Part shown: piece by piece, positions 6,454 through 62,566 of the stretch
Position numbering within the stretch: the first letter of the stretch is position 1
Layout of the letters: the number at the start of each line of letters is the position of its first letter
DNA from: Minutocellus sp. GHC0000111
Taxonomy: Eukaryota
DNA: 64,000 nucleotides
Assembly (NCBI GenBank): GCA_977018835.1
Contig: OZ361260.1
Location: 3,038,001 to 3,102,000, forward strand
Reading direction: 5' to 3'
Notes under the pieces: model-generated
Seen by the model: only the letters and a program-made list of their open reading frames with translations
Databases searched by the model: none
Told to the model about the DNA's origin: nothing
Made by a program: the position numbers and the translations under genes

Positions 6454-7061
6454 TCGTAATGCAATAACGTCGTAATGTAGACCTGCAATTTCCAATCGGA
6501 AAATGGCAATTTGATCCTTGGTTGTGTTATTGCATGCAGTGATATTATGTTAGGCCGGCGGAGAGAGTGAGTGCAGCACGTGCATGTAGTGGCAAAAGCT
6601 GCAATTTTGGGTACAGGCCAAAAACCCGTCCTCTCAATGTCACAGGCGGAGAAACTCGAAGCGGCAAAATGCAAAGACGCGACCAAAGACGCGCCCAAGA
6701 CCTCCTAAATATGGCGCATGTAATGGTAGATCAGAAAAGAACAGAAACGCGACGAAGAGAGCTTCCAAGGGCTTCCTCAAAAAATCGAAAAGTGTAGAAT
6801 TAGTGTAAAAATGGAAGTTGAACCAAGACGTCGAGTCGGCGAGGGAAACCCGAGGAACAAGCATCTGATTTTTCTTCATCCAAAATTCAGAAACCAGAAC
6901 GTGAATAGGCGACAAATGTCAGCCTTGATGACGATCATACGTCAGGCCATTCCTTGGTGACTTTCGGTGACCGAGTCCTGACTGACCAAGCCATGTTATT
7001 CCAGCAGAAGCGACGTGTCGGCAGAAATCTACTGTGCATTCATTCGTGTAAGAGGCCCTGA

Positions 7062-7091
7062 GTTAGGGTTAGGGTTAGGCCTAACCCTAAC
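7062..7091. repeat. Interstitial telomere-like (TTAGGG) inverted repeat
   Basis: gttagggttagggttagg-cctaaccctaac; 7068-7091 is a perfect 24-bp palindrome. Confidence 0.9.
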
Positions 7092-7118
7092 AGTAAAATG
7101 TAGGCCAACACGATCGTG

Positions 7119-10100
7119 CCTTTCGGTTTCAGAGGATTTGTAGAGGGTGTACCAATAACCCCTAAAAAAGGTCATTCTTGCACCCATTTCTCATTTCCCA
7201 CCAAGTGTTTTGTTAGTCGATGTTCTCTTCGGGAGGAACGCAAACACTCCTCAACTCGTGGACATCTACTGGACCTGCTCATTCAGCAGGTTGCCACCGA
7301 CCAGTAGTATCCACTGAATTCGCAGGTCCAGTAGATTCTGGCAGGAACACATGTGTATTTTTTGGTCCCCCGCACACACCCTCTCTCACCACCGCAACCC
7401 GCAAATTTTGTGACGATGACGACGACCAACCAGACCACGCCCAAAAAATACAAACGCAGCAGAACTTCGTTCTCAGGGAGCAAGAGAGGCAACACCATCA
7501 AGGCATCCAGGAAGGCGGCAAAGGCGGCAGCTGAGCCGAAAACACCATCGCCGAGCGCAAACACGTCGTCGAAGAAGCGGCCACGGTCAAATTCGCCCGC
7601 CAAACCGTCACCGTCGTCGGCGAAGAAGAGGACGGCCCCTCCTCCTATCCCCATGGCCTTTCTCCTTGCAGCAGATGTCATTCGAAGGGCTGGTAAGGAT
7701 CTGTGGTGGAGAGAGTAACCCCCGATTCCTGCGGCAAAGATGACATTTGTGTTGGTTCTTGGCAGAAATGGGAGGAAGACGTCCTCCCTGCTTTCATCGA
7801 GGCCGACTTGTTGCGTTCCAAGTCCGTCGGTGGAGGAAAGTATGAGCTACAGTACAACGAGGAAAAATGGAAGGACATGCAGCAACATCTCAAGGAGCAT
7901 TGTAGTTTGAAGTTGCACTTGTCGACACATCGGCCGAGAGGGAAGACAAGACGCAGGGCGCTTTTGTGTTTGTGCTCACAGGAGGACAACCACCCGAAAC
8001 TCTCTGGACCGGAGGGAAAGAAGGTGCACGAGAAAAGAAATCCCGATGAAGTTCTGTTCTCTGGGCGCTCGACTGTCTTAGCTACTAAGCTAGGTGAGAG
8101 GTTGTCAGCTCACAGAAAGGAGGCACAGTCAGCGCGTTGCGAAGCAAGAGCAAAATCACTAGTCGACGAGGCCAAGAAACTGGGTTGGATGCCAGCAAGT
8201 CTCCTCAGCATGCTGAAGGGAACTGGTGACACTTCCGCCACTGAAGCAGCTGCAGCCTCCCCCAATGATGAAGGTTTAGGAGGAGCCGACACTTCCGTTG
8301 TCTGTGCCACCTCCAGTGACATTGATGAACAGGTAAAGGTCGCTCTCGGCCTCGACTTTGTTGTTCGGATGGCCAACGATGACGTGCTCCGTCCTCCTCG
8401 TCCCAATGCAACCGTCACCGAACCAACACCAATCAGAAAAGAAAATCAGGCGAATGAAAGAATGCGGTTCAGCGCCGTGGCTCTCGCGGATTGGTGGGGA
8501 TGCGGCGACCCAACTCGCACGCATGAAGACCGGCAACAAATTGCAACTGCCGCGTGTCGGCAAGTTGCGTGCGATCACGGTTGTGCCAAGTCAACCGGTG
8601 GCTCTTAGCTTTACAAGTGGAGAGACCAGCTCTACAAAAGCCTTGCTGATGGCATCAGCAATCCCATCGGCAGAAAGGAGGTTCGTGGAAGGAAGGCACA
8701 CACGGACATGATCGAGGAGAAGGAGCCAGGATGTCTCCGCGAGCTGTGTCGGCATGCTGCTCGGATGAAGGGTGCGATGGCAACCTTTAAGGAGCTAGCT
8801 GACTGCATGAGCGCAAAATCAGCTACTCCAGATGAAGATAGGCTGACAATTAGTCTCCATCGTCTTCAGCTTTTTCGCTGGTGGAAAAAGCAAGGCGGTG
8901 AGGAGAAGTCGTCGATCGAGAAGCCGAGGCTCACCCCCGAATGTTGTAGGAAGCGACTTGATTGGATCGAAAAGTGGGAGGACATTACGACCGATCCCAA
9001 CATTCCTGTAGCGTGTCTTGATGAAAAGTGGTTTTACACTGCTACTCGGCGACGAAAGATCAAGATGTTGCCACTTTCTGACGAAGAACTAAGCAGTCCG
9101 AACCTCGCGTCTATCCATGCTTCCGAGGCAAGCCCGAAAATTCGATCCAGAAGACACCCTGTCAAAGTTATGTGTCTTGGAGTTGTTGGCCGACCAATGA
9201 AGGATGAAACCAAAGACGTTGATTTCAATGGGCGCATCATGATCAAGAGAGTCGCCAGGGAGCAGAAGGTGGAAAAGCTTGCGCGTAATCAGAATTTCTC
9301 TCCAGATGCTAAGGTCAACGATGCGCTAAAAAATGACAAAGATTGGCGCGACATTTACGACGAGAATGCTGACATGACCGCCGGCCATCTTTGCGACCAC
9401 ATTGCCGAAATCTACGGCCTTTCTGAGTTTGTTACAGAGCGATTGGAACTTCAATACGAGGACCACAAATCCGACGGTCAGGCAAAAAGTCGCAAGCATG
9501 CCGCTGTTGGCTACAATCAAAAGATCTCGAGTCTCAAGCGACGCACTCCTGACAGCAATGGAGAGAAGGTGAAGGTTGAGATCGACGACCTTGAGCTCGG
9601 GGTGCGGTATCAACGGGGCGATAAGGTTACCAAGGACTGTAGCTGCGACTCCAAATGGATGTTGGAGACTGTGAATGAGGTCGGGAAGGCGATTCGAGAC
9701 GCACATCATTGGGTGAAGTGGGATCCACAAAACATTCAGTCAGGAGTCTGATGTCATGCATCTTATGATGGACAATGCCGGCGGTCATGGGTCCAATGAA
9801 GCAGTTGAGAAGCACACCGAGGACCTCAAAAACAAATATAAGATTGAGATAATCCAGCAGGTTCCTCGGTCGCCCGAGACAAATGTTCTTGATCTCGGCA
9901 TCTGGATGTCTTTGCAGTCGGCCGTCGAAAAGGAGCATCGCGGTCAGAAGAATGATGCGAATGCTCTTGACAAGACTGTGATGAAAGTATGGGCCAATGT
10001 CGCATCAAAAGAGGCCTTTCTCAATGTATTTGGAAAACTTCCAGTGATATATAACAACATCAAGAGAAGTCGTGGCGGTAACAATCTTGTGGAGACCAGA

Positions 10101-10571
10101 CGGGGAAAGGCTGGTCTCGCATCAATTGCCGAGGAAGAAGCTGAAGAGGATGGTGAACCTCTCTGGCCAATTGATTTTCCCGGCGAAGATGATGACATTG
10201 AGGACGACATAGATGAAAATGATGAAGACGATGGAGTCATTGATTTGCTATAACTTATCATAGCATGTCCATTTCCATTCATTACATTTTGATTTGGTGC
10301 TTCCAAAAATGTATTTTTTCCCGGGGTGAGGAATGCAAATGTCGAAAAAAATCATCACATAATGTACATTTATTGGTTCTGGTGCACAATATCTCTCGAC
10401 TATATGTAGAAGTTGGTGACCATAACTTGGTTCTTGCCCCGACTTCCATCTTGGCCGTCATTTATTCCTCGGAGTTAGAAAAAGTGAGCTTGGATTTTTG
10501 GTCTGGTGTGGTCGTGTTTGTTTCTAATACGTCATCATCACGTCACTTTCAAATCCTCTGAACTCGAAAGG
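7119..10571 (+). mobile_element. Tc1/mariner-superfamily (DD39D-type) DNA transposon, copy A, degenerate
   Basis: 22-bp TIRs: 7119-7140 cctttcggtttcagaggatttg vs reverse complement of 10550-10571 cctttcgagttcagaggatttg (20/22); right end followed by TA; internal transposase. Confidence 0.93.
7416..10253 (+). pseudogene. DD39D transposase pseudogene (copy A)
   Basis: LDEKWF, KVMxLGVV, MDNAGGH-...-PRSPETNVLDLG with 39 residues between the 2nd and 3rd Asp; frameshifts at ~7710 and ~9745, TAG at 8606-8608. Confidence 0.9.
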
Positions 10572-10573
10572 TA

Positions 10574-11862
10574 CTCATTTCATCTCAATAGAAAGATGGT
10601 ATTTTCGAATCAGTCAGGAGATTACACAAGTAGATCATGATCTACCGATATGTTGAGCTGCGCTTCTTCTAGACTAGCTAGCCGAACTGACTGGCTGCTG
10701 CGCTGCTGCCACCGCCAAATTCCTGACTGACCTCCCCTCTCTTCAAGCAACGACATAAATAAATACCGGTAACAGCAATCTTGATGTAAATGCATGCCGG
10801 TGTTGGCATAAATTTGGTTCTGACATCAACCTTATGTTTACACTATCGACCAACTTAGGTACGGATCAGATCAAAACAAGAGATTGAATGAAAGGGGGGA
10901 TTGTGCATATTTTTCTTTTTCTTTCTCCGAGTAGCGACTTAGTTGTCACCACCGATGGCAACGAAACGCTTCTTGGCGGCCTGCTTGCGGCTGATGCGCT
11001 TTCCGGTGGCGCCCTCTCCTGCCTCGGTCTCCTCATCGGCCTTGTCAACTCCCTTCTTCTTCTCGCTGAGGATGAACTCAACGTGGGCGGGATGGCTGGC
11101 GTACTTGCCGATGCGGCCGTGGGCACGGCAGGTTCGCCTGCGGCCGGCGGGGGCCTTGTTGCACTGGGCATGGGAGACGTAGAGGGTGTCAACGTCGAGA
11201 CCCTTGGTCTCAGCGTTGGCGATGGCGTTGGTGAGCATGTCCTTGATGACGGCCGTGGCCTTGACGGGCCACCTACCCTTGGAGCCGGGGGTCTTGGACT
11301 GCTTGGCCTGGGCCTTGCGGCCGATGCCACCGGTGTGCTTGACGAAGGGGACGACGGCCTTGAAGGCGAGGACGTCCTCGAGGAACTTCATGGCCTTGTT
11401 GACAGGCATGCCGTTGATGTGGTGAGCGATCTCACGGCAGTGCTTGAAGTGCACACGGAGGTGGGATCCGCGGGTCTTGGAGTGGGCGACAGCGGCATCG
11501 GGCTCGACAGCGTAACGGGTCATGATGAAAAAGTTTTGATACAAAAATATACTAATACAGACTGTTGGGGTATTGGAAGAAAAGAATGGAAAGATGTTGG
11601 AAGTGAGAATAATGTGTTTTGGGCGGCAAATGTAGCCATTGTCGTGTATCACTGACATCTCTTTCGCAGCTCATAACCAAAGCACTGCCAGGATGAAGAT
11701 CGAGGTGTCGGTCCGATGGAAATGAAATGTGACGGATAGCCCAACCTTGAAGCCACCCAAATACACCAGTTCCTGTTGAAAATCCACCAGTATTAGCGCT
11801 GCCTGATTGCTTGACTGAGATCTGCCGCCCCACACTACGCGTTGTCTCACGGCTACACACGT
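10574..11862. repeat. Captured host segment, inverted duplicate of 45283-46571
   Basis: Near-identical reverse complement; homology stops sharply at 11862/45283 and is followed by TIR tip aactcgaaagg + TA (11863-11875). Confidence 0.93.
10939..11523 (-). CDS. RPL17: 60S ribosomal protein L17 (uL22), transposon-captured duplicate with Tyr->His and Tyr->Cys changes
   Basis: LRVHFKHCRE, GRWPVKA, RRTCRAHGRI (vs RRTYRAHGRI in the other copy); reading frame intact, intronless. Confidence 0.93.
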   Translation of the reverse strand: MTRYAVEPDAAVAHSKTRGSHLRVHFKHCREIAHHINGMPVNKAMKFLEDVLAFKAVVPFVKHTGGIGRKAQAKQSKTPGSKGRWPVKATAVIKDMLTNAIANAETKGLDVDTLYVSHAQCNKAPAGRRRTCRAHGRIGKYASHPAHVEFILSEKKKGVDKADEETEAGEGATGKRISRKQAAKKRFVAIGGDN

Positions 11863-12139
11863 AACTCGAAAGGTACCGCCGCTGTCCCGCGTCGCGCGTC
11901 GCCACCCATGACATTTTCCGCAAAGCCGAGGGACAAAACAAGGATATGTGCCGGACTGCCTCTTTCGCCTATTTCGCCGGATTTCGCGGCAATCGCAATC
12001 GCAATAACACTCGCCTCAGAAGTCGCCAATCCGTCACATTTATTGCATCCACTCAAAGCTCCAAACTACCTAGAGCTAGCTAGAGCTACGTAGTAGTACT
12101 AACCTGCTTTCCTTCCATTCATCCGTTCGTTGACTCCAC

Positions 12140-13150
12140 ATGTCACCCATCAAGTCCCTCTACCGCCGCGCCATCGATGACCAGGCTGTTGCCATGTGTG
12201 CTGCTGCTACGTATGCCCCCTCGCGAATGCAGCAGCCATCATCAATACTAGTAGTGACGCCCTTCCATCCCCTTCCATTCTCCTCCCTTGCGGCTCCAGC
12301 CACTTCTACCGGCCAATCGACCACAGGCGCGTCAACGTCTGCCCCCATCCCAACTCCAGTTGTCTCTCCGCCCACGACCACAGATGTTGACGTCTACGTG
12401 CTTGACTGCATTTCCAGTATCAGCAGCAATACTTCTGAAAGTGCGCCCAGCACTGGCGCTGATTCTTCCTCTACTGCTACGCCCCACATGACCAAGAAGG
12501 AACGGCGCCTCATCATGAATCGCAACTCTGCCCGCCTTCGTCGCAAGCGTCACGCCGAGAAGATGGACAAGATGCAAGGTACCGTCCGCGATCTGGAGAT
12601 CAGCAACAAGCGCATGCGCACCGAGAACGACGAGCTTCGCAAGGCCATCGCCGACCTCAAGGCGCTGGTGGAGGAAAGGAATCAAGCAATGCCTGCAAGC
12701 AGTGTCGCCACTATCGCTCCTGATGGTGCAGCTTCTCCCCAATCTGTTGCATCTGCTAAAGTGGACGCTACTACATACGAGTCATTGGCTGCCTCGGCAC
12801 TGGCCAAGTGCGCAAGAATCAGCGCCGCTCCAGAAAAGCAAGGGGAGGAAATCTCTCCGAAGACCACGCTTGTCAAGCCTACCATGCCACCCAAATACAT
12901 GACTGTAGATGCCAACAATACCCTCTTTCGCTCCTACCTTCTCTGCCGTGCTGCCTCCCTGCGTCTGTTCACGAGAAATTCCTCTGCTGAAGATAAAACG
13001 TCCTTCGATGTTTCTACCAATGTCCCTTCCAGCAGCATTCAGCCCAGTACTTCTAGATCTACTGGAGTTGACATGACCTCAACCACCGACGAGATTGAAG
13101 CCACAAAGCTTGCTGCTCAGCAGCTCACTGCTCTGGCCTTCATGGGATAA
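12140..13150 (+). CDS. bZIP transcription factor
   Basis: KKERRLIMNRNSARLRRKRH basic region followed by heptad zipper (MQGTVRDLEISNKRMRTENDELRKAIADLK). Confidence 0.9.
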   Translation: MSPIKSLYRRAIDDQAVAMCAAATYAPSRMQQPSSILVVTPFHPLPFSSLAAPATSTGQSTTGASTSAPIPTPVVSPPTTTDVDVYVLDCISSISSNTSESAPSTGADSSSTATPHMTKKERRLIMNRNSARLRRKRHAEKMDKMQGTVRDLEISNKRMRTENDELRKAIADLKALVEERNQAMPASSVATIAPDGAASPQSVASAKVDATTYESLAASALAKCARISAAPEKQGEEISPKTTLVKPTMPPKYMTVDANNTLFRSYLLCRAASLRLFTRNSSAEDKTSFDVSTNVPSSSIQPSTSRSTGVDMTSTTDEIEATKLAAQQLTALAFMG

Positions 13151-34250: not shown

Positions 34251-36271
34251 CTATCGCTTGCATTCCGTACAGCAAGTGCACTCTAGTTGAGGATTTGGTC
34301 CACGGCAGTCAGAGATCAACGATCGGATGAAACCATCACCAATCGGAGGTACGCGATTATCGCATATTTGCTGTGGCATCGTGCCAGTGAGATCGGCGTA
34401 CTCGAAGCCACCAACAATGAGAAGATCAAGATTTCCAAGCTCGGTCGGAATAGTTCCCCGAAGGGGATTGCCTCCGACTTGTAAGAAGCGCAGTGTTGTC
34501 ATCTCGCCTAATCGTGGCGACAGGGTTCCAGTGAGGGTAATATTGTTGAGGTCAAATTGCAATAGCTCTCTCAAATCAAAGAAGGTGCTTGGGATGGTAC
34601 CAGAAATTTCGTTGAAATCGACATCAAAGACCAAAAGCCTCTCCATCTTTCCATACTCCTCAGGAATAGGACCCGACAGACGCCCTCTCTCCGTGTAAAA
34701 GAAGCGAAGATCCGATAGCTCACTCACTTCCACTGGCAACGCCCCAATGAGGTTATTGCTCTCAAATTCGATCCTATCCAAACACAAATCGTTAGCGTTG
34801 CACTCCAAACCTCCCCAGAAACACTCACTGACGGGCGTCAGCCAAGCATCGGTACCACTAATGCGAGGGAAAATGTCGGTGCCGAGAGGGGGCGGAGTAA
34901 GGCCCAAATTGCACGCATCATTGGCTTCTTGGATGCTCGCTGGGTCGGACAGATCATCAGGCGCAGAACACTGCACCCAATTGGGTCCATTGGTCGAGAA
35001 GTAGAACACAGCCGCGACATATCTCTGAAGAGACTTTGCATCCTGCGGGCAGACGTAGAGAGCATCTTCGTCAATGAGCCACTCGAGAGCATTGTATTGA
35101 GGAGTGCCCGGAGTGATTGGTGCCGTTGGTCCAGAAACACGAATTGCCTGGAGTGTGAGCTGTTCCCTTCGTTCCACAGGAGTCAAATTACATCGCAGTG
35201 TGGGGTTGAACGTAGGTGTAGCGGTAGGAGACGCCGTGGTTGGGACAGGGGTGGGCCCCGGCGTCGGAACGGGGGTCGGTGCTGGTGTGGGATTTGGCGT
35301 CGGTGGGGGCGTCGGTGGGACAGGGGTGGGCGGGACGGGCGTAGGCGGTGCCGCTGTGGGCGGAACTGGCGTCGGGGGCACTGCGAGAGGAGCAATGCCA
35401 AGAAGTGAAGAACAAGATACACGATGAGAAATGTGGCGAGAATAATGAAAAAAATAAACAAAAGATTTTCTGCTGTGATTATCGTTGACTTACCTGGCGT
35501 GGGAGGCACCGCCGTTGGAGGAACAGGAGTGGGTGGGACTGGAGTGGGTGCCTTTGTCGGGCTTGGTGTTGGGCCAGGAGTCGGTGCCTTGGTGGGTGCC
35601 TTCGTCGGTGCAGGCGTAGGAGGCTTTGTAGCGGAAGCTGTAATGGAAATGGTCACCACGGCACTGTCGGTAGCACCAGATGTGTCGGCAATAGTGTACG
35701 TGAAGGAATCCGTGGCAGTCTCGCCGTTTTGGAGGGAATCGTATTGACCATTGGGATCGTATGTGTAGTCTCCCTTGTTGTTGATGGTCAGGATCGCACC
35801 AGAACCGAGCGTCACGGTAGTCTCACGTCGTACAGGCTTTCCATCTACACGGAACACGGCGATGTCGTCTCCATCGGGATCGGAATCGTTGGCCAAGACA
35901 TTGCCACTGACGGTGGCATCGTCCCTGGTTGTAGCCGTGACGTCGTTGGCGACGGGGGGCTGATTGGGGATGGACCCACCAACCTGCTGCAGCATGCGTG
36001 CCCAGAATTCTTCATCGGCCTCATCAATCACATCGCTATCATTTTCGTACATCTGCTGGCCCATCAGCTTCATTGCCTTGGCTCCCAACCGCCGTCTCCT
36101 CCGGTCCGGGCCTTTGTTTTTGTTCCTTTTGCTATCTATCTTTGCTGTTGCTGCCTCCTCGGATGCCACTTGCTGTGTTGCGGCAGATACCGACGATATG
36201 CAACCACCGGACAGGGCCCAAAGCCCCAAAGACAAGGCAATCAATCGATGGTGTCGCTGTAATTGCATCAT
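34251..36271 (-). CDS. Secreted LRR protein with cadherin-like/bacterial Ig-like domain and Pro-rich linker
   Basis: Signal peptide; PPVANDV...GNVLANDSDPDGD...DSFTYTI; PTP repeats; PQ..AL.WL..ED..QRY cap; LRRs; DC..ECTCCTEC end; intron ~35383-35493. Confidence 0.88.
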
Positions 36272-39381: not shown

Positions 39382-41402
39382 TTAGAAGCACGACGAACAG
39401 CAGTCGCACTCAATTTTGGGATCATTTCCAGCACAATCCGCAGTTAGAATGTTAAGTAGCCCATTGGGAACACGATTATCGCAGACAGACTGTGGCATTG
39501 AACCGCTGAAATCATTGCCACGGAAGGTAGCAGTGCCTATTATAATAATGTTGCAGTGAACCATGAAATGAATGTGGACTTGGTGAGGATACGGTACTAG
39601 AATACCCCAGAGAGAAAACAATCGAGGACAGCAAAAAAAAAACTCCTGTGGTACTTACGCAATTTTGTGAGCCGGCTAAAAGTGTCTGGAATCTTTCCTT
39701 CGAACTTGTTATCTTCAAACTCAACAAAGACCAGGTCGGTAAGCCGCCCAACCCTGTCACTCAGAGTTCCCTCCAGGCGATTTTCGTCAATATCTAGTAC
39801 CTTGAGAGTGTCAAGGTTGAAAAGATTGTCACTGATTGGACCAGAAAGCCTATTCTGATCCAGATCCAAGACCTGAAGGCTCTCTCCATTCCAGACTCCT
39901 GAACCCCACTCCTCCGGGATGGTGCCAGAAGTTCGGCCGCCTTCCAGAGTGAGATTTCTGAGCTTATTGAGGGCCAAAATTTCGGCGGGGAAAGTACCTC
40001 CAAGATCGTTGCCCTCAAAGCCAATGACAGAAATATCATTTCCAGTACACTTGCTGCCAGCCCAGTCGCACTCAGAACTGGCCGAGAGGTAGGGCTTCTT
40101 GCCAGGAAAGCCACTGTTTGGAGCGCCACAAGGAACATTCTAAATGGGAAAGAAAGAGAATAACAAATATGATGGTCAGAGGCGTGTTCATTTTCTAACC
40201 AAGCAAATGAATGTGACAGAAAGGGATAATTTCGCGCCAATATAAAGTATATCTCACCTGCAGCCTTCTTCCCTTGCTCTTATCATCGCGGCCACCCTTC
40301 TTGCTATTCTTCTTCTTCCTCTTGTCATTCTTGTTCTTGTTGTTCCGATCGCGGCTGTCGGAATTATTATCCCTCTTCCTCCGCCCCTTTTCAAGCTCCT
40401 TCTTGGCCTCCTCCCAGTCGCACTTTGTCTCAACGAAACAGTCAGCACGGCACTCAAGTTCTTTGGGCTCGTTACAGAGACGGTCTCCACCATTGTCCTT
40501 GCAGCACTTGTCACGGCAGTACTTGAGACAATTAGTCTCGCCTTCTTTGTCCTTGTTTCCGCCGCCGCCTGTGCGGGCGAGTTGTTCGTCGTTATCGTCA
40601 TCATCATCGCCCCGGGCGGAATTGTCTTCAAGGACGACAATAGCTGGCTCCTTCTCTTTGATAGCCACCTTGTCATTGTCATCCTCGGCCCTTACAGAAG
40701 CCGATCCGGCCGAGCATTCAGCCCATCGATCGCCATCGGTGGAGTAGTAGAACACGGCCATAATGTATCTTTGGATGAGATTGTCATCGTCGGGACAGAG
40801 CTGGGCCTCATCCTCGTTTGTGATCCAGTTCAACGCCCTACCCTGCGGGCTGCGATCGTCGGCGATATTCTGGCGAGAGGAGACTCCTGATGCGGTGATC
40901 TCGTCGAGGATGCGACGCTGCCTCTGTCGTTCCGTAAGTCCATTGCAGACTGGGGATTGGGGAAAGTTTTACAACATGGCAAGGAAAATCAGAGAAGAAC
41001 AAAGTCAGCGATACGAGTGTGACATAAGAAAAAAAATGGCAATGCAATCCAGCCTCAAAAACACCAAAGAGGGGGAAATCAGCGATGCTACTCACCAGTA
41101 GGCCCGGGTGATGGGGCAGGTCCAGGTCCAGGAGAAGGTGGAAGACTACCACCCTTCTTTTCCTTGAGGTATCGGTCCCAGTAGGCCAGATCTTCCAGGG
41201 CGAGCACGTCCTCATCCGTTGCGGCCTGTTTGTCACCCCAAATCGAGAAACGATTCTTCCCACGGAGCTGACGAGCACCAGTCGTTGAGGTTTTGCCATC
41301 GTCATGATGAAAGGCGGCATCGACGGTAGCAGGGACGAGGATGACCATCGCCGCTGCCACGACAAGGGCCAAAGCAGTGCCGTGTTGTCTCATGATTTTC
41401 AT
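39382..41402 (-). CDS. Secreted LRR protein with Cys-rich/charged insertion
   Basis: Signal peptide, [18 protein letters not shown] cap, LRRs, [13 protein letters not shown]; three GT-AG introns (~40952-41096, ~40141-40257, ~39538-39658). Confidence 0.85.
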
Positions 41403-44715: not shown

Positions 44716-45621
44716 GGTTAGGTTTTGGTTTGCGGTTGCTTTGAACGGTTGGATCAAGTGAATTGTGATGGAATGATACGATACGTGCCAATGCCGCGGA
44801 AGTTTGACGCAGAACAAAACAACGCAGAGTTCTGCAGAACTCCTGCGTCAACCCAACACATCACGAGATCACGAGTAGATGAGTCATTCGATTGAGTCAG
44901 TGAGATTGAAAAGTTTCAGGTGATTCCTCAAAATTTCGCAACTTACTTCGATTTCCCCCCAAAACCAAATTCTACCTGCTTACTAAGAAACACGCTTTCC
45001 GGGTTATGCACATACTAGTAGCTCATAACCTGTTTCCCGCTCTTTTTCGTTTTTCATACGAAAACGAGATGTGAGTGGAACGATGGCCGAGTTGCCGGCT
45101 AGTGGAGGTAGATTTTATCGACCGACCATGTCAGTGAACGCTGGGGGACCTTTCCGTTGGTGCATGCGAGCGTTGAAGTGCTGCAGGAGTTGTAGCAGAT
45201 GGAGAGAAAACGCAGCACATCCTCGGCTGGTGATCTGCCTCTCGGGACCTCACCTCCGATTGGAAACACCGGCGGAGCAGACACGTGTGTAGCCGTGAGA
45301 CAACGCGTAGTGTGGGGCGGCAGATCTCAGTCAAGCAATCAGGCAGCGCTAATACTGGTGGATTTTCAACAGGAACTGGTGTATTTGGGTGGCTTCAAGG
45401 TTGGGCTATCCGTCACATTTCATTTCCATCGGACCGACACCTCGATCTTCATCCTGGCAGTGCTTTGGTTATGAGCTGCGAAAGAGATGTCAGTGATACA
45501 CGACAATGGCTACATTTGCCGCCCAAAACACATTATTCTCACTTCCAACATCTTTCCATTCTTTTCTTCCAATACCCCAACAGTCTGTATTAGTATATTT
45601 TCGTATCAAAACTTTTTCATC

Positions 45622-46206
45622 ATGACCCGTTACGCTGTCGAGCCCGATGCCGCTGTCGCCCACTCCAAGACCCGCGGATCCCACCTCCGTGTGCACTTCA
45701 AGCACTGCCGTGAGATCGCTCACCACATCAACGGCATGCCCGTCAACAAGGCCATGAAGTTCCTCGAGGACGTCCTCGCCTTCAAGGCCGTCGTCCCCTT
45801 CGTCAAGTACACCGGTGGCATCGGCCGCAAGGCCCAGGCCAAGCAGTCCAAGACCCCCGGCTCCAAGGGTAGGTGGCCCGTCAAGGCCACGGCCGTCATC
45901 AAGGACATGCTCACCAACGCCATCGCCAACGCTGAGACCAAGGGTCTCGACGTTGACACCCTCTACGTCTCCCATGCCCAGTGCAACAAGGCCCCCGCCG
46001 GCCGCAGGCGAACCTACCGTGCCCACGGCCGCATCGGCAAGTACGCCAGCCATCCCGCCCACGTTGAGTTCATCCTCAGCGAGAAGAAGAAGGGAGTTGA
46101 CAAGGCCGATGAGGAGACCGAGGCAGGAGAGGGCGCCACCGGAAAGCGCATCAGCCGCAAGCAGGCCGCCAAGAAGCGTTTCGTTGCCATCGGTGGTGAG
46201 AACTAA
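45622..46206 (+). CDS. RPL17: 60S ribosomal protein L17 (uL22), native copy
   Basis: RGSHLRVHFK, GRWPVK, RRTYRAHGRI intact; strong codon bias. Confidence 0.97.
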   Translation: MTRYAVEPDAAVAHSKTRGSHLRVHFKHCREIAHHINGMPVNKAMKFLEDVLAFKAVVPFVKYTGGIGRKAQAKQSKTPGSKGRWPVKATAVIKDMLTNAIANAETKGLDVDTLYVSHAQCNKAPAGRRRTYRAHGRIGKYASHPAHVEFILSEKKKGVDKADEETEAGEGATGKRISRKQAAKKRFVAIGGEN

Positions 46207-46573
46207 GTCGCTACTCGGAGAAAGAAAAAGAAAAATATGCACAATCCCCCCTTTCATTCAATCTCTTGTTTTGATCTGATCCGTACCTAAGTTGGTCGAT
46301 AGTGTAAACATAAGGTTGATGTCAGAACCAAATTTATGCCAATACCGGTATGCATTTACATCAAGATTACTGTTACCGGTATTTATTTAAATCGTTGCTT
46401 GAAGAGAGGGGAGGTCAGTCAGGAATTCGGCGGTGGCAGCAGCGCAGCAGCCAGTCAGTTCGGCTAGCTAGTCTAGAAGAAGCGCAGCTCAACATATCGG
46501 TAGATCATGATCTACTTGTGTAATCTCCTGACTGATTCGAAAATACCATCTTTCTATTGAGATGAAATGAGTA

Positions 46574-49500
46574 CCTTTCGAGTTCAGAGGATTTGAAAGT
46601 GACGTGATGATGACGTATTAGAAACACGACCACACCAGACCAAAAATCCAAGCTCACTTTTTCTAACTCCGAGGAATAAATGACGGCCAAGATGGAAGTC
46701 GGGGCAAGAGCCAAGTTATGGTCACCAACTTCTACATATAGTCGAGAGATATTGTGCACCAGAACCAATAAATGTACATTATGTGATGATTTTTTTCGAC
46801 ATTTGCATTCATTCCTCACCCCGGGAAAAAACACATGTTTTTGGAAGCACCAAATCAAAATGTAATGAATAGAAATGGACATGCTATGATAAGTTATAGC
46901 AAATCAATGACTCCATCGTCTTCATCATTTTCATCTATGTCGTCCTCAATGTCATCATCTTCGCCGGGAGCATCAATTGGCCAGAGTGGTTCACCATCCT
47001 CTTCAGCTTCTTCCTCGGCAATTTTTGCGAGAGACTAGCCTTTCCCCGTCTGGTCTCCACAAGATTGTTACCGCCACGACTTCTCTTGATGTTGTTATAT
47101 ATCACTGGAAGTTTTCCAAATTCATTGAGAAAGGCCTCTTTTGATGCGACATTGGCCCATACTTTCATCACAGTCTTGTCAAGAGCATTCGCATCATTCT
47201 TCTGACCGCGATGCTCCTCCTTTTCGACGGCCGACTGCAAAGACATCCAGATGCCGAGATCAAGAACATTTGTTTCGGGCGACCGAGGAACCTGCTGGAT
47301 TATCTCAATCTTATATTTGTTTTTGAGGTCCTCGGTGTACTTCTCAACTGCTTCATTGGACCCATGACCGCCGGCATTGTCCATCATAAGATACATGACA
47401 TCATCAGACTCCTGAATATTTTGTGGATCCCACTTCACCCAATGATGTGCGTCTCGAATCGCCTTCCCGACCTCATTCATAGTCTCCAACATCCATTTGG
47501 AGTCGCAGCTACAGTCCTTGGTAACCTTATCGCCCCGTTGATACCGCACCCCGAGCTCAAGGTCGTCGATCTCAACCTTCACCTTCTCTCCATCATTGCC
47601 ATCCATCAGGAGTGTGTCGCTTGAGACTCGAGATCTTTTGATTGTAGCCAACAGCGGCATGCTTGCGACTTTTTGCCTGACCGTCGGATTTATAGTCCTC
47701 GTATTGAAGTTCCAATTGCTCTGTAACAAACTCAGAAAGGCCGTAGATTTCGGCAATGTGGTCGCAAAGATGGCCGGCGGTCATGTCAGCACTCTCTCGT
47801 CGTAAATGTCGCGCCAATCTTTGTCATTTTTTAGCGCATCGTTGACCTTAGCATCTGGAGAGAAATTCTGATTACGCGTAAGCTTTTCCACCTTCTGCTC
47901 CCTGGCGACTCTCTTGATCATGATGCGCCCATTGAAATCAACGTCTTTGGTTTCATCCTTCATTGGTCGGCCAACAACTCCAAGACACATGACTTTGACA
48001 GGGTGTCTTCTGGATCGAATTTTCGGGCTTGCCTCGGAAGCATGGATAGACGCGAGGTTCGGACTGCTTAGTTCTTCGTCAGAAAGTGGCAACATCTTGA
48101 TCTTTCGTCGCCGAGTAGCAGTGTAAAACCACTTTTCATCAAGATGCGCTACAGGAATGTTGGGATCGGTCGTAATGTCCTCCCACTTTTCGATCCAATC
48201 AAGTCGCTTCCCACAACATTCGGGGGTGAGCCTCGGCTTCTCGATCGACGACTTCTCCTCACCGCCTTGCTTTTTCCACCAGCGAAAAAGCTGAAGACGA
48301 TGGAGACTAATTGTCAGCCTATCTTCATCTGGAGTAGCTGATTTTCCGCTCATGCAGTCAGCTAGCTCCTTAAAGGTTGCCATCGCACCCTTCATCCGAG
48401 CAGCACACCGACGACACAGCTCGCGGAGACATCCTGGCTCCTTCTCCTCGATCATGTCCGTGCATGCCTTCCTTCCACGAACCTCCTTTCTGCCGATGGG
48501 ATTGCTGACGCCATCAGCAAGGCTTTTGTAGAGCTGGTCTCTCCACTTGTAAAGCTGAGAACCACCGGTTGACTTGGCATGGCCGTGATCGTGCGCAACT
48601 TGCCGACACGCGGCAGTTGCAATTTGTTGCCGGTCTTCATGCGTGCGAGTTGGGTCGCCGCATCCCCACCAATCCGCGAGAGCCACGGCGTTGAGCCGCA
48701 TTCTTTCATTCGCCTGCTTTTCTTTTCTGATTGGTGTTGGTTCGGTGACGGTTGCATTGGGACGAGGAGGACGGAGCATGTCATCGTTGGCCATCCGAAC
48801 AACAAAGTCGAGGCCGAGAGCGACCTTTGCCTGTTCATCAATGTCACTGGAGGTGGCACAGACAACGGAAGTGTCGGCTCCTCCTAAACCTTCATCATTT
48901 GGGGAGGCTGCAGCTGCTTCAGTGGCGGAAGCATCACCAGTTCCCTTCAGCATGCTGAGGAGACTTGCTGGCATCCAACCCAGTTTCTTGGCCTCGTCGA
49001 CTAGTGATTTTGCTCTTGCTTCGCAACGCGCTGACTGTGCCTCCTTTCTGTGAGCTGACAACCTCTCACCTAGCTTAGTAGCTAAGACAGTCGAGCGCCC
49101 AGAGAACAGAACTTCATCGGGATTTCTTTTCTCGTGCACCTTCTGTCCCTCCGGTCCAGAGAATTTCGGGTGGTTGTCCTCCTTCTTTTTGCGCGCAACC
49201 TGTGAGCACAAACACAAAGCGCCCTGCGTCTTGTCTTCCCTCTCGGCCGACACGTCGATCGACAAGTGCAACTTCAAACTACACAATGCTCCTTGAGAGA
49301 TGTTGCTGCACATCCTTCCATTTTTCCTCGTTGTGCTGTAGCTCATTGTTTCCTCCACCGACGGACTTGGAACGCAACAAGTCGGCCTCGATGAAAGCAG
49401 CAGGGAGGACGTCTTCCCATCATTTCTGCCTGCCGAGAACCAACACAAATGTCATCTTTGCCGCAGGAATCGGGGGTTGCTCTCTCCACCACAGATCCTT

Positions 49501-50080
49501 ACCAGCCCTTCGAATGACATCTGCTGCAAGGAGAAAGGCCATGGGGATGGGAGGAGGAGGGGCCGTCCTCTTCTTCGCCGACGACGGTGACGGTTTGGCG
49601 GGCGAATTTGACCGTGGCCGCTTCTTCGACGTGTTTGCGCTCGGCGATGGTGTGTTTTCGGCTCAGCTGCCGCCTTTGCCGCCTTCCTGGATGCCTTGAT
49701 GGTGTTGCCTCTCTTGCTCCCTGAGAACGAAGTTCTGCTGCGTTTGCATTTTTTGGGCGTGGTCTGGTTGGTGGTCGTCGTCATCGTCACAAAATTTGCG
49801 GGTTGCGGTGAGGGTGTGCGGGGGACCAAAAAACACACATGTGTTCCTGCCAGAATCTACTGGACCTGCGAATTCAGTGGACACTGCTGGTCGTCGGTGG
49901 CAACCTACTGAATGAGCAGGTCCAGCAGACATCCACGAGTTGAGGAGTGTTTGCGTTCCTCCCGAAGAGAGCATCGACTAACAACAAAACACGTTGTGGG
50001 AAATGAGAAATGGGTGCAAGAATGACCTTTTTTAGGGGTTATTGGCACACCCTCTCTACAAATCCTCTGAAACCGAAAGG
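46574..50080 (-). mobile_element. DD39D mariner-type transposon, copy B, degenerate
   Basis: TIRs at 46574-46595 and 50059-50080; TA at 46572-46573; inverted homolog of 7119-10571. Confidence 0.93.
46894..49784 (-). pseudogene. DD39D transposase pseudogene (copy B)
   Basis: ORF fragments 49452-49838, 47781-49448, 47593-47817 and 46935-47756 carry DEKWF, MDNAGGH and NVLDLG; many small indels. Confidence 0.9.
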
Positions 50081-54603: not shown

Positions 54604-56061
54604 CTACGGATATCTATTACTAGTATTCTGTGGATTTTTGTTATCAGGAGGGGGCGCTTCGTCGCCAGTCACAAGCAGGGACGGCTCGAAGCAAGCCGTG
54701 CAACAGCTTGGGGAAGCACACTCGACGTAAAACTTGGCTGAAGGGACGAGGCAGTCGCACGTCAGAGATCCAATGAGACCATCCTGTGTGTTTCGTAGAT
54801 TACATACTTCCTGAGGCATGCTCCCGTTCATTTGATTACGGTCAAAGTTGGCGATCGCGAGCTGCGATAGGAGACCAATCTCAGTTGGAATTGTACCGGT
54901 AATTCGATTTTTCGATAGCTGTAGGAAGCGCAGCGAAGAGAGGTTGCCAATGTCACTTGAAAGGGATCCCTGCAGGAGATTATCATTCATGTCGAGCTCT
55001 ACCAGATTTTTCAGCTGGTAGATTGTAGTGGGAATGCTCCCAACAAGTAGATTGAAGTTCACATCAAATTCTTGCAGCTTGGAGATGTTTCCAATCTCCG
55101 GTGGTATTGTTCCTGCAGTTTTTCCTTCTTCAAGGTGAAGGAACAGAAGCTCCTTTAGCTCTTGGAGCTCTCTGGGAATAGTACCCTGAAGGTTATTGCT
55201 CTCTGTAGAATGGAGATAAAAGAAGAGTTAATAACGATTGTCGTATGAAGGGACTTTTCGTGTCATCGCAAGCGTATCTTTCGATTTGTTTTTACAAATC
55301 CATTTCTACTTACCGAAATCGATTCGAACCAAAGAGTCGCCAAGGTTGCGCCTACAGGCCAAGCCTCCCCATTGACATTCGCTGACGGGTGTGAGCCAGG
55401 CGTCCGTACCGCCAACATCGGGCGAGTCAACTTCTATGTTGCAATTGGCATTTGCCTTCTCGATACTTTGAGGGTCCTCCAAATCTTCGGGCGCCGAGCA
55501 CTGCAACCAACCGTCGCCGATAGAAGAATAATAGAACACAGCGGCAACATATCTCTGTACCAAAAAATCATCATCGGGGCACAGATACATGGCATCTTTA
55601 TTGACAAGCCAATCAAACGCCATGTTCTGGGGACTGCCGACCTTGTTGAGATCCTCCACCTTGGATACTTGCGATAGTGTTGCTGTAATCTGACCTCTCC
55701 TCTCTACTGCAGGCATTCCGCAGGGAAGCGTTGGGGCAGGGGTTGGGTCCGGCACCGGCACCGGCACTGGCAAAGGCGGCATGCTGTTGTCATCATCTAG
55801 TGCCTTGTTGAGGAGTTCCTGGATTTCCTCTAAATCTTCCTTGGCCTCCTTGACCCACTTGGCGATCAAATTTCCTCCACCGAACTTCGTCCTTCGCTCT
55901 ACCAACTCTTCCTCTGATACTTGCTCGGTCTGCTGTGTGGCCCGACGAAGGCGCTTCGGTCTCTCCTTGTGCTTGATTCGGTTGTCTTCGCTTACATTCT
56001 TTTGCTTGATCGCCAGGACCGTCGAGGAAAGGCCCAACAAAACAAGAGCCGATACCTTCAT
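54604..56061 (-). CDS. Secreted LRR protein
   Basis: Signal peptide, SPQNMAFDWL..D..LCP..QRY cap, DAWLTPVSECQWGG, LRRs, TCDC..CCTACF; intron ~55204-55313. Confidence 0.9.
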
Positions 56062-60746: not shown

Positions 60747-62566
60747 TTAGAAGCATTGAGTGCAGCATGGCGTCGCGCACTCGACATAGAATGGGTCGGC
60801 AGGATCAAGGCAGTCACTCGTCAGAGTTCGCAAGTTGCCAGCTCGAAGAAGACACACCTCCTCAGGCATTGGGTCCTGCAAAAAGTTTGTGTCAAAAGTT
60901 GCAACAACTGCAAAATTGCGATAGAGAAAGTGGCAACGCGAAAGAATAGGTTAGCATACCATATCGTTTATACACCAGACATTGAATCTCAATGAATATA
61001 GCATCAACATGCAAAAGTTCATTTCGACTCACTCAATCTGTTCAAGTTGCCAACTTCAGCGGGAATGGATCCGGTGAACTGATTGCGGTGGAACTGCAAG
61101 AAAGTAAGCTTGGTCATCTTTTGTATGTCCGGACTAATCGGACCGCTGAGAGAGTTGTCATTCATGTCAAACTCCAGCAGGTTGGCCAGATTGTACATGT
61201 TGGCAGGGATAGAACCGGTGAGAGCATTGAAGTTCATATCAAGCTCGAGGAGGTTACTCAAGTTGCCCAACTCAGGTGGGATTGTACCACCGGTTCGTCC
61301 CTCTTCCATGTGGAGGAAACGAAGCTCCTGAAGCTCCTGGAGCTCTCTGGGGATAGTACCAGCCAGATTATTTTTCTCTGCAAAGTGAGCGAGTAAGAAG
61401 AGGAAGGGGACACTTTTGAGTTAGTTGCAAATGACAAATACATGTATACTAATTCGACCGAAAAATCTTCCACCAAATCTCGTAAAGCCATGCAAACCAA
61501 TCGAACAAAGACACTTACCGAACTCAATGCGCTCCATGTCGCCACTGACGGTGTCGCACGCAACGCCACCCCACTGACACTCGGAGACAGGGGTTAGCCA
61601 GGCATCGGTACCACCTTGGCCGATCTCTACCTCCAAATCGCAATTGGCATTGGCCTCACGGATGCTGTTCGGGTCGGACAGATCGTCAGGAGCCGAGCAC
61701 TCGACCCAATTCGGTCCGTCGGTGGAAAAGTAGAACACGGCCATGGTATACCTCTGAATCAGGAAGGGATCGTCGGGACAAAGGTAGAGGCTGTCCTCCT
61801 CGGTGATCCACTTCAGACTTCGACTTTGCGGAGAGAAAGGCGACACGAAATCAATGGGATTGGACACCTGGCCAAGGATATCGGCAATGGCAACGGCTCT
61901 GTCTTCTGGACTGAAGTTGCAAGTGAAGGTCGGGGCAGGAGTCGTCGGCGCCGCTGTGGTCGGCCGAGGGGTAGGTGCTGGTGTGGGGCCAGGAGTTGGT
62001 GGGGGGGTTGGACCTGGTGTGGGTGGGGGGGTTGGACCTGGCGTGGGTGGGGGGGTCGGCCCAGGAGTCGGCCCAGGAGTTGGGCGTGGTGTCGGACGAG
62101 GAGTCGGCTGAGGAGTCGGATTCGGTGTCGGACGACGCGTCGGAGGAGGAGTTGGAACAATCGACGAATCCTCGGTCAAAAAGCGATCCCAATATCCCTC
62201 GTCTTCCAATGCCATGTCATCCTCTGTCTCTATCTGATTCTTTCTGTTGAGACCTCTCTTGCTGATGATCTTCTTCGTCGTTGTAGCTCTCTTCTGACTC
62301 TTTTTCGCTGGCATTGCATTTGCAATAGCACCATTGACGGCAACTCCTTCCACCACTTTCGTCGCCGCCGTTTCCTTCAACCGCATAAGGTCAATAGCAT
62401 TTTGGTGTTGATCGATTGCTGCTGCCCCTCCGATAGACGCCCGACGTACCCTCAGCGAGCTTTTGCTATTTGTCGACGCCGCTGCCGCCGTCGAAGCTTG
62501 GACCTCAACTGAGGCTGCCGCCGCCGAGGCGGCAATTAGCCCGAGGCCGAGGGCGACCCGGCGCAT
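60747..62566 (-). CDS. Secreted LRR protein with PTP-repeat stalk
   Basis: Signal peptide, PTPGPTPP repeats, SPQSRSLKWITEED..CP..QRY, LRRs, TADC..ECATPCCTQCF; introns ~61378-61518 and ~60877-61031. Confidence 0.9.

Follow-up and report, generated by a model that had tools for sequence, protein, structure and literature searches.

The DNA analyzed here, referred to as the window, comprises 64,000 nt of contig OZ361260.1 (assembly GCA_977018835.1, positions 3,038,001 to 3,102,000) from the marine microbial eukaryote Minutocellus sp. GHC0000111. It contains two copies, A and B, of a transposon related by predicted fold to the Tc1/mariner superfamily. Copy A is joined on its right side to a complete copy of the ribosomal protein gene RPL17 (uL22), and this added DNA ends in an 11-nt tip that repeats the end of the transposon itself; the parental RPL17 gene adjoins copy B, 33 kb from copy A. 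The arrangement at A, termed the composite, was probably formed when a break in copy A was repaired on copy B.

Layout of the composite and its donor locus

Copies A and B share a 22-bp terminal inverted repeat (TIR), CCTTTCG(GT/AG)TTCAGAGGATTTG. The TIR pattern CCTTTCGNNTTCAGAGGATTTG matches the window at four sites, 7119–7140 (+), 10550–10571 (−), 46574–46595 (+) and 50059–50080 (−), compared with 0.01 expected from shuffled sequences. The composite begins with the left TIR of copy A, continues through the transposase region to the complete right TIR and a TA, and then extends over 1289 bp with the whole RPL17 gene to the tip and a further TA (Table 1). This is the layout proposed in a first-pass annotation of the window, all coordinates of which hold. 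TA follows the right ends of A and B as well as the tip; the left flanking dinucleotides are TG at A and CA at B, not TA.

The sequence from 10519 to 11862 at A is matched in inverted orientation by 45283–46626 at B (1344 nt, 99% identity by the repeat finder), and the homology ends at 11862. Beyond this position A reads AACTCGAAAGG TA, whereas at the matching place locus B reads …CACACGT GTCTGCTCC. The tip and its TA form the 13-mer AACTCGAAAGGTA, which occurs in the window only at 10561–10573, 11863–11875 and 46572–46584 (−). With at most one mismatch allowed, 0.06 sites are expected; taking the point where the A/B homology ends as a single fixed place, the probability that the 13-mer falls exactly there is ~1.5e-8. 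By type, the tip is a right end (…CGAGTT) rather than a left end (…CGGTTT), in agreement with the annotated 11-nt repetition of the right TIR end. Equally in line with the annotation, which regarded the outer flanks of A and B as unrelated, a comparison over 1 kb on each side returned chance matches only (best blastn E 0.096).

No microhomology is present at the 11862/11863 joint, which is blunt. Two strings considered as joint microhomology, CACGT (found before the tip and at 10539–10543) and CCGCCG (found in both outer flanks), do not lie at the joint and are taken as chance occurrences. The copied piece contains, on its minus strand, a complete and intronless 194-aa Ribosomal_L22 open reading frame (ORF; Pfam PF00237, E 1.8e-28), together with 339 bp upstream and 365 bp downstream of it.

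Table 1 Features of the composite at copy A and of the donor locus at copy B, in window positions.
Feature	Positions	Strand	Remarks
Flank left of copy A	7042–7118		77 bp without counterpart on the other haplotype; includes a 24-nt telomere-like palindrome
TG at left end of copy A	7117–7118		TA expected; one transition off
Transposon copy A	7119–10571	+	3453 bp, Tc1/mariner-superfamily-like; coding region split into several ORFs
Left TIR of copy A	7119–7140	+	CCTTTCGGTTTCAGAGGATTTG
Complete right TIR of copy A	10550–10571	−	20/22 identical to the left TIR
TA after complete right TIR	10572–10573		Same as at copy B
Piece copied from the flank of copy B	10574–11862	+	1289 bp; 11 substitutions and 0 indels relative to B over 10572–11862
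RPL17/uL22 copy A	10939–11523	−	Intact 194-aa ORF; Y63H and Y132C private to A
Tip	11863–11873	+	AACTCGAAAGG, 11 nt; repeats the last 11 nt of the right TIR
TA after tip	11874–11875		Probably the TA of the right target site that copy A had at first
Flank right of tip and TA	11876–12042		167 bp without counterpart on the other haplotype
Donor, native flank of copy B	45283–46573	−	TA and 1289 bp; runs on into unique DNA at 45282
RPL17/uL22 parental gene at locus B	45622–46206	+	
Transposon copy B	46574–50080	−	Inverted relative to A; also frameshifted; on one haplotype only

Both loci were also examined in Logan contigs of the coded public runs X15, X16, X1, X2 and X6. In a 1333-nt RPL17 contig common to X15 and X16, position 10572 is preceded by 42 further letters, 30 of which were compared by eye with the left flank of B; they match it at 29 of 30 positions with a 2-nt gap, and abut TACTCATTTC. 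This contig is the locus B allele without the transposon, reading …GTCGT TA CTCATT. Since the transposon-free allele joins the left flank of B to the TA and the 3' region of RPL17, the gene is native at B and the insertion of copy B is hemizygous. Beyond 11862, contigs of X15, X16 and X1 run into the B flank GTCTGCTCC…. Copy B is the donor, as the first-pass annotation had proposed for the element 33 kb away, and the transposon-free allele shows RPL17 to be native there. The sequence of the empty allele fits a TA target, the left TA of the filled allele now being CA, and that at A being TG.

Divergence, junctions and haplotypes

The element bodies of A and B differ by 78 substitutions and 25 indels over 3453 nt, whereas the copied flank differs by 11 substitutions and no indels over 1291 nt (Fisher p = 5.3e-6; probability of an indel-free flank 3.6e-4). 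In a two-rate change-point model the rate changes at 10803 (support interval 10314–10959), and the interval includes the TIR boundary. Because the body diverges far more than the flank, A and B appear to be separate members of the family, B having been copied only for the extreme right end of A and the flank. The contrast fits a break near the right end of A, and it speaks against a derivation of the whole of A from B, by end bypass and by composite transposition alike.

End bypass, or transduction, would mean that the transposase cut the left end of B together with a look-alike end beyond RPL17, and that a 4.7-kb unit moved from B to A. Such an event would yield a composite that starts with an exact left TIR and ends with a TIR tip and TA, as seen here, and P elements are cited as a case of this mechanism (Tsubota and Huong 1991, as given in PMC8277862). 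However, the surrogate end that it calls for downstream at the donor locus is absent: locus B has GTCTGCTCC in place of the 11-mer, the 13-mer has no further site in the window, and the 11-nt end amounts to half of the 22-bp TIR. The ~3.5-fold higher divergence per site of the body relative to the flank, with 25 indels against none, is likewise unexpected for a wholesale copy. We consider end bypass very unlikely.

A second route would begin with two elements in the same orientation around RPL17 that moved as one composite, after which a deletion or incomplete excision left 11 nt of the second element, in a manner resembling Pack-CACTA. Close-set elements and incomplete excisions that delete ends are documented for Pack-CACTA (PMC6379663, available part), and the hundreds of family copies in the genome, evident from a depth of 20,000–100,000 as compared with ~100 for unique DNA, would supply partners. 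The route is nonetheless costly: besides transposition of the composite, it requires a further insertion close to B, a traceless loss there and a deletion at A, which makes four events or more. Neither a TA nor a footprint is present at 45282/45283 in B, and the divergence of body and flank again counts against it, so that this history is highly improbable.

The junctions were followed in the public runs. A 317-nt contig in both X15 and X16 covers 11833–12159 without substitution and crosses 11862/11863. Its depth of 78.2 in X15 and 125.9 in X16 equals that of the neighboring single-haplotype contigs (80–84 and 120–124, respectively). The unique DNA around A is represented in these two runs by two haplotypes, with shared nodes at a depth of 160–234, window-identical contigs at 78–84 (X15) and 120–126 (X16), and contigs of the alternative haplotype at 102 (X15) and 109 (X16). 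Because contigs of two runs cross the joint at single-haplotype depth, the junction is taken as real and not as an artefact of assembly. The first-pass annotation had named mis-assembly at 11862/11863 as what would overturn its reading, and the contigs of X15 and X16 counter it.

A chimeric join of the A and B repeats would be conceivable in this setting, since the two copies are 97–99% alike over kilobases, a situation that is error-prone for assemblers, and since a 10-nt indel at 12070 separates the window from the contigs of X15 and X16. Against it stand the De Bruijn contigs of X15 and X16, which at haploid depth extend from 11833 across the tip and on into unique DNA, a contig of 134 nt in X16 that spans the left junction (7012–7145), and an X6 contig that is identical to copy A over 10858–11252, including the C at 11129 that is private to A. 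A chimeric join is thus extremely improbable, the least probable of the explanations considered. X6 has no cover over the junction, which is uninformative at its low depth, and X2, equally uninformative, holds only a more distant RPL17 with 12 differences in 401 nt.

As to the indel itself, the X15 and X16 contigs are without 10 nt of a CTAGAGCTAG-type tandem repeat at 12070–12079, which the window and X6 possess; either the strains differ here, or the assemblies do so slightly.

On the other haplotype, seen in X15, X16 and X1, the 5001 nt from 7042 to 12042 are replaced by 186 unlike letters, and the 60 nt from 12070 to 12129 by 27 letters. The only joint listed at A is 7041 to 12043, with these 186 letters between; a clean empty site of A is therefore unavailable. 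The first-pass annotation had suggested a search for an empty-site allele (7118 joined to 11876) and for a copy A without the added piece (10560 joined to 11863), and neither joint is listed in the five runs. Over 6903–6988 the haplotypes differ at ~4 of 86 sites, and the organism is apparently diploid and strongly heterozygous. Within the 77 bp to the left of copy A that the other haplotype does not have, head-to-head telomere-type repeats, TTAGGGTTAGGGTTAGG followed by CCTAACCCTAAC, occupy 7063–7091. They contain a perfect 24-nt palindrome (7068–7091), 27 bp from copy A, and have no second occurrence in the window; they could be the trace of an old break that telomerase or a fold-back healed.

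Transposon family and the RPL17 copies

The ORFs of copy A gave no match to a relevant transposase family in Pfam. A search of a protein collection identified 35 relatives among 1107 candidates, including an ORF of 570 aa at 94% identity that represents a cluster of 275 sequences. Intact proteins among the relatives are 474–605 aa long and show 31–50% identity; the relatives share the motifs DEKWF, DNAGGHG and SPETNxLDLGxW. The homologs matched HTH_Tnp_Tc3_2 at 26.5 bits (cut-off 31.5) and DDE_3 at 19.3 bits (cut-off 28.6), both below threshold. A sequence profile search against the Protein Data Bank (PDB) found no solved transposase.

The fold was therefore predicted for an intact homolog, P0012, which is 45% identical to the 347-aa ORF of A, rather than for the broken ORFs of A. 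The AlphaFold (AF2) model was built from an alignment of 8 sequences, with a predicted local distance difference test (pLDDT) value of 75.9. Its best fold matches in the PDB are Mos1 mariner (E 4.7e-8), SETMAR and Sleeping Beauty catalytic domains (TMt 0.65–0.71). The model thereby conforms to the transposases of the IS630-Tc1-mariner superfamily, which have an RNase-H-fold DDE/D domain and N-terminal helix-turn-helix DNA-binding domains. The spacing between the first and second catalytic Asp (DEKWF to DNAGGH) is 210–231 aa in all eight homologs, and the second Asp is followed after 33–34 aa by the Glu of SPE and after 38–39 aa by the Asp of LD. Mariner elements in the strict sense have a D,D34D spacing with ~90 aa between the first and second Asp and a length of ~1.3 kb. 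The 210–231-aa spacing and the 3453-bp length of the present element depart from the strict mariner (DD34D) type.

A metagenome scan for the TIR returned one locus, L001, with a related element end in another organism. A TA lies directly outside this end, although a single locus is too few to define a target duplication. The modelled fold of P0012 places copies A and B in the Tc1/mariner superfamily, and their target, judging from the TA outside the related end, probably does so too. The label "mariner" given in the first-pass annotation thus holds at the level of the superfamily, through the fold match of a homolog, and fails for mariner in the strict sense; nor is the family recognized by the curated Pfam models DDE_3, HTH_Tnp_Tc3_2 or Transposase_1. 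The transposase family (P0009–P0028) has an extra ~120–140 residues between the first two catalytic Asp and stays below the Pfam thresholds; it may represent an undescribed Tc1/mariner lineage of marine eukaryotes.

Neither copy in the window retains an intact coding region. Copy A is frameshifted between the motifs of the first and second catalytic Asp, and copy B is broken into ORFs of 521 and 241 aa. The summed depth of the transposon body is 20,000–100,000 in X15 and X16, compared with ~100 for unique DNA, and the family therefore numbers roughly hundreds of copies.

The RPL17 segment forms one contig with a depth of 224.9 in X15 and 296.5 in X16, or ~2.5 haploid equivalents. This fits B on two haplotypes and A on one, with no sign of more copies. 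The copied piece differs between A and B at 11 sites among 1291. At 9 of the 11 the majority letters of X15 and X16 and the X1 contig side with B, and A therefore carries private changes, which include Y63H and Y132C in its RPL17. Y132C sits in RRRTYRAHGRI, and its Tyr is kept in all three printed alignments to solved uL22 proteins; RPL17 copy A thus looks unconstrained and, as judged from sequence, seems to be decaying rather than gaining function. Neither RPL17 protein has an exact match in the protein collection.

Of the nine changes private to A, six lie within 86 nt (10717–10802), close to where the copied tract begins, and six are AT-to-GC transitions. Either error-prone repair synthesis or relaxed constraint could produce this pattern, which does not reach significance. 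The split of 9 private changes in A against 2 in B, also short of significance, was not taken as a sign of mutagenic repair synthesis.

These data bear on whether the composite could act as a functional Pack-type element, in which an intact transposase of the family would act on the left TIR together with the 11-nt tip at the outer end and so move RPL17 elsewhere in the genome. The tip does end in the exact terminal bases and TA. The family also seems active, or recently so: A and B are each present on one haplotype only, and the 94%-identical 570-aa ORF stands for a 275-member cluster. Against this, the cargo is present at about three haploid copies by depth, the outer end is without 11 of the 22 TIR bases, the complete right TIR inside would be favored as an end, and the dinucleotides flanking the composite are TG and TA. 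A Pack-MULE-like element would have two complete terminal repeats around its cargo and several copies with different target duplications, whereas here the outer end has 11 of 22 bases and only A and B occur in the window, at a rough depth of ~2.5 haploid equivalents for the cargo. The likelihood that the composite is a functional Pack-type element is accordingly slight, on a par with that of the two-element route.

The terms "Pack-type element" and "gene capture" used in the first-pass annotation are thus not upheld in the sense of a mobilizable composite. RPL17 lies outside the only complete right TIR, beyond which the outer end is a half repeat, and the frameshifted transposase of A and the RPL17 depth of ~2.5 haploid equivalents disfavor mobility as well. 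The composite is probably not mobile as a unit.

Elsewhere in the window, four paralogous segments (34904–35620, 40733–40832, 55051–55559 and 61226–62155) are 63–76% identical and contain G-rich GTxGGxxxxGGx repeats with a 12-nt period. Their sequence suggests a small gene family with Gly/Pro-rich repeat domains.

Proposed origin and comparison with known systems

We propose, with a probability of about 0.75, that a break at or near the right end of copy A was mended by synthesis templated on copy B, and that this made the composite. Copies A and B would first have inserted independently at TA sites. A double-strand break would then have occurred in the right TIR of A, 11 nt from its end; alternatively, A may have been excised and the gap refilled from the sister chromatid, with only 11 nt copied on the right side. 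The left broken end, consisting of element sequence, would have invaded the homologous element B 33 kb away, the switch to this donor being guided by the long homology between two copies of one element. Synthesis would have run out of the right TIR of B, past the TA and into 1289 bp of its unique flank. Finally, the new strand would have been released and joined to the other end, which bore AACTCGAAAGG, the TA and A's own flank. Because the 11862/11863 joint shows no microhomology, this final step was likely a blunt end joining. The product would be a one-off RPL17 duplicate, including the DNA upstream of the gene, that is carried by one haplotype and is undergoing decay.

In our analysis the structure is best described as single-copy and Pack-TIR-like, formed by transposition-independent gap filling. 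Repair synthesis on B that read through the TIR and was rejoined to the 11-nt tip had been suggested in the first-pass annotation, and it provides the best fit to the transposon-free B allele, the divergence contrast and the junction contigs. The description of the event as "caught in the act" was overstated, since 11 of the 1291 sites in the copied flank have already diverged from B.

Several points weigh against an origin by break repair. To the left of 11862/11863 the junction contigs hold 30 letters, which equals the k−1 overlap and is one short of the 31-letter bridging rule. Runs X15–X18 may be source data of the assembly, and hence are possibly not independent of it, and contig depth is a rough measure of copy number. 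X1 has no cover over 11868–12029, a gap that is uninformative at the low depth of this run. No clean pre-event allele of A, with the full element and without the 1302-bp addition, occurs in the runs; as neither such an allele nor an empty site was seen, the order of events at A is one that we infer. A break 11 nt inside the TIR differs from the known Tc1/mariner cleavage position. The contrast between body and flank could also have other causes, for instance later gene conversion among the hundreds of copies, and the surplus of private changes in A (9:2) lacks significance (binomial ~0.07).

The case implies that break repair in one transposon copy, when templated on another and extended into host DNA, can duplicate a whole gene along with the region upstream of it. 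This route mimics transduction or a composite transposon, and it would escape gene-capture surveys in which transposon-linked parents are discarded. A broader claim, that homology-guided read-through repair is a regular and under-counted route of whole-gene, promoter-bearing duplication in transposon-rich protists, and in its boldest form that the left TIR and the tip with its TA can still be mobilized by an intact transposase, is unlikely.

With P elements, gap repair from ectopic templates was reportedly shown in experiments with induced transposase by Gloor et al. in 1991. The present case resembles it in that a broken or excised element would be refilled from a homologous copy and sequence linked to the template can come along, whereas it differs in being a natural and old event deduced from sequence. 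P-element end bypass, as relayed in the available part of PMC8277862, also combines an element with adjacent host DNA that ends in an end-like sequence. However, the surrogate donor end is absent at B, and the P product is transposable whereas no sign of transposition is seen here.

With plant Pack-MULE and Pack-CACTA elements, as described in the available part of PMC6379663, the composite shares host gene DNA tied to transposon ends. The plant elements enclose the cargo between two full ends, are non-autonomous and are often multicopy. In contrast to these Pack-TYPE elements, the composite consists of a full-length element, the cargo and an 11-nt remnant in single copy.

The closest counterpart is found in the single-copy Pack-TIRs of animals, which are attributed to gap filling of internal breaks or excision gaps with template switching (Tan et al. 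2021, PMC8277862). In the available part of that study, the captured sequence is biased to cis and 115 of 370 cases are TcMariner. Pack-TIRs are defined as carrying sequence that is not from a transposable element between parts of one TIR element, with the parent elsewhere. The composite conforms to this, with a right-hand element part of only 11 nt and its parent at 45283–46571. In both, break repair with template switching would have brought host DNA into a resident TIR transposon; shared features are also the single copy, the parent in cis (33 kb away here) and the TcMariner type of the element. A Pack-TIR example in that text also shows a left TA mutated to CA, similar to the loss of the left TA here.

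The differences concern the template and the site of the break. Here the parent adjoins another copy of the same element, so that the switch would have used kilobases of homology and been read out through the TIR; the break would lie 11 nt from the end, and the cargo is outside the complete TIR rather than in the interior of the element. The second joint has no microhomology, compared with a median of 2 bp in Pack-TIRs, and the host is a marine microbial eukaryote rather than an animal. According to the same part of PMC8277862, the Pack-TIR pipeline left out parents linked to TIR elements, and the parent here abuts copy B. The sub-type with an element-adjacent parent would therefore be uncounted in that survey. 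In this one natural case the donor, the recipient, both junctions and the empty-site allele of the donor are visible together. The composite is thus a known kind of repair accident in unusually legible form, and neither a new class of gene-carrying transposon nor a new mechanism.

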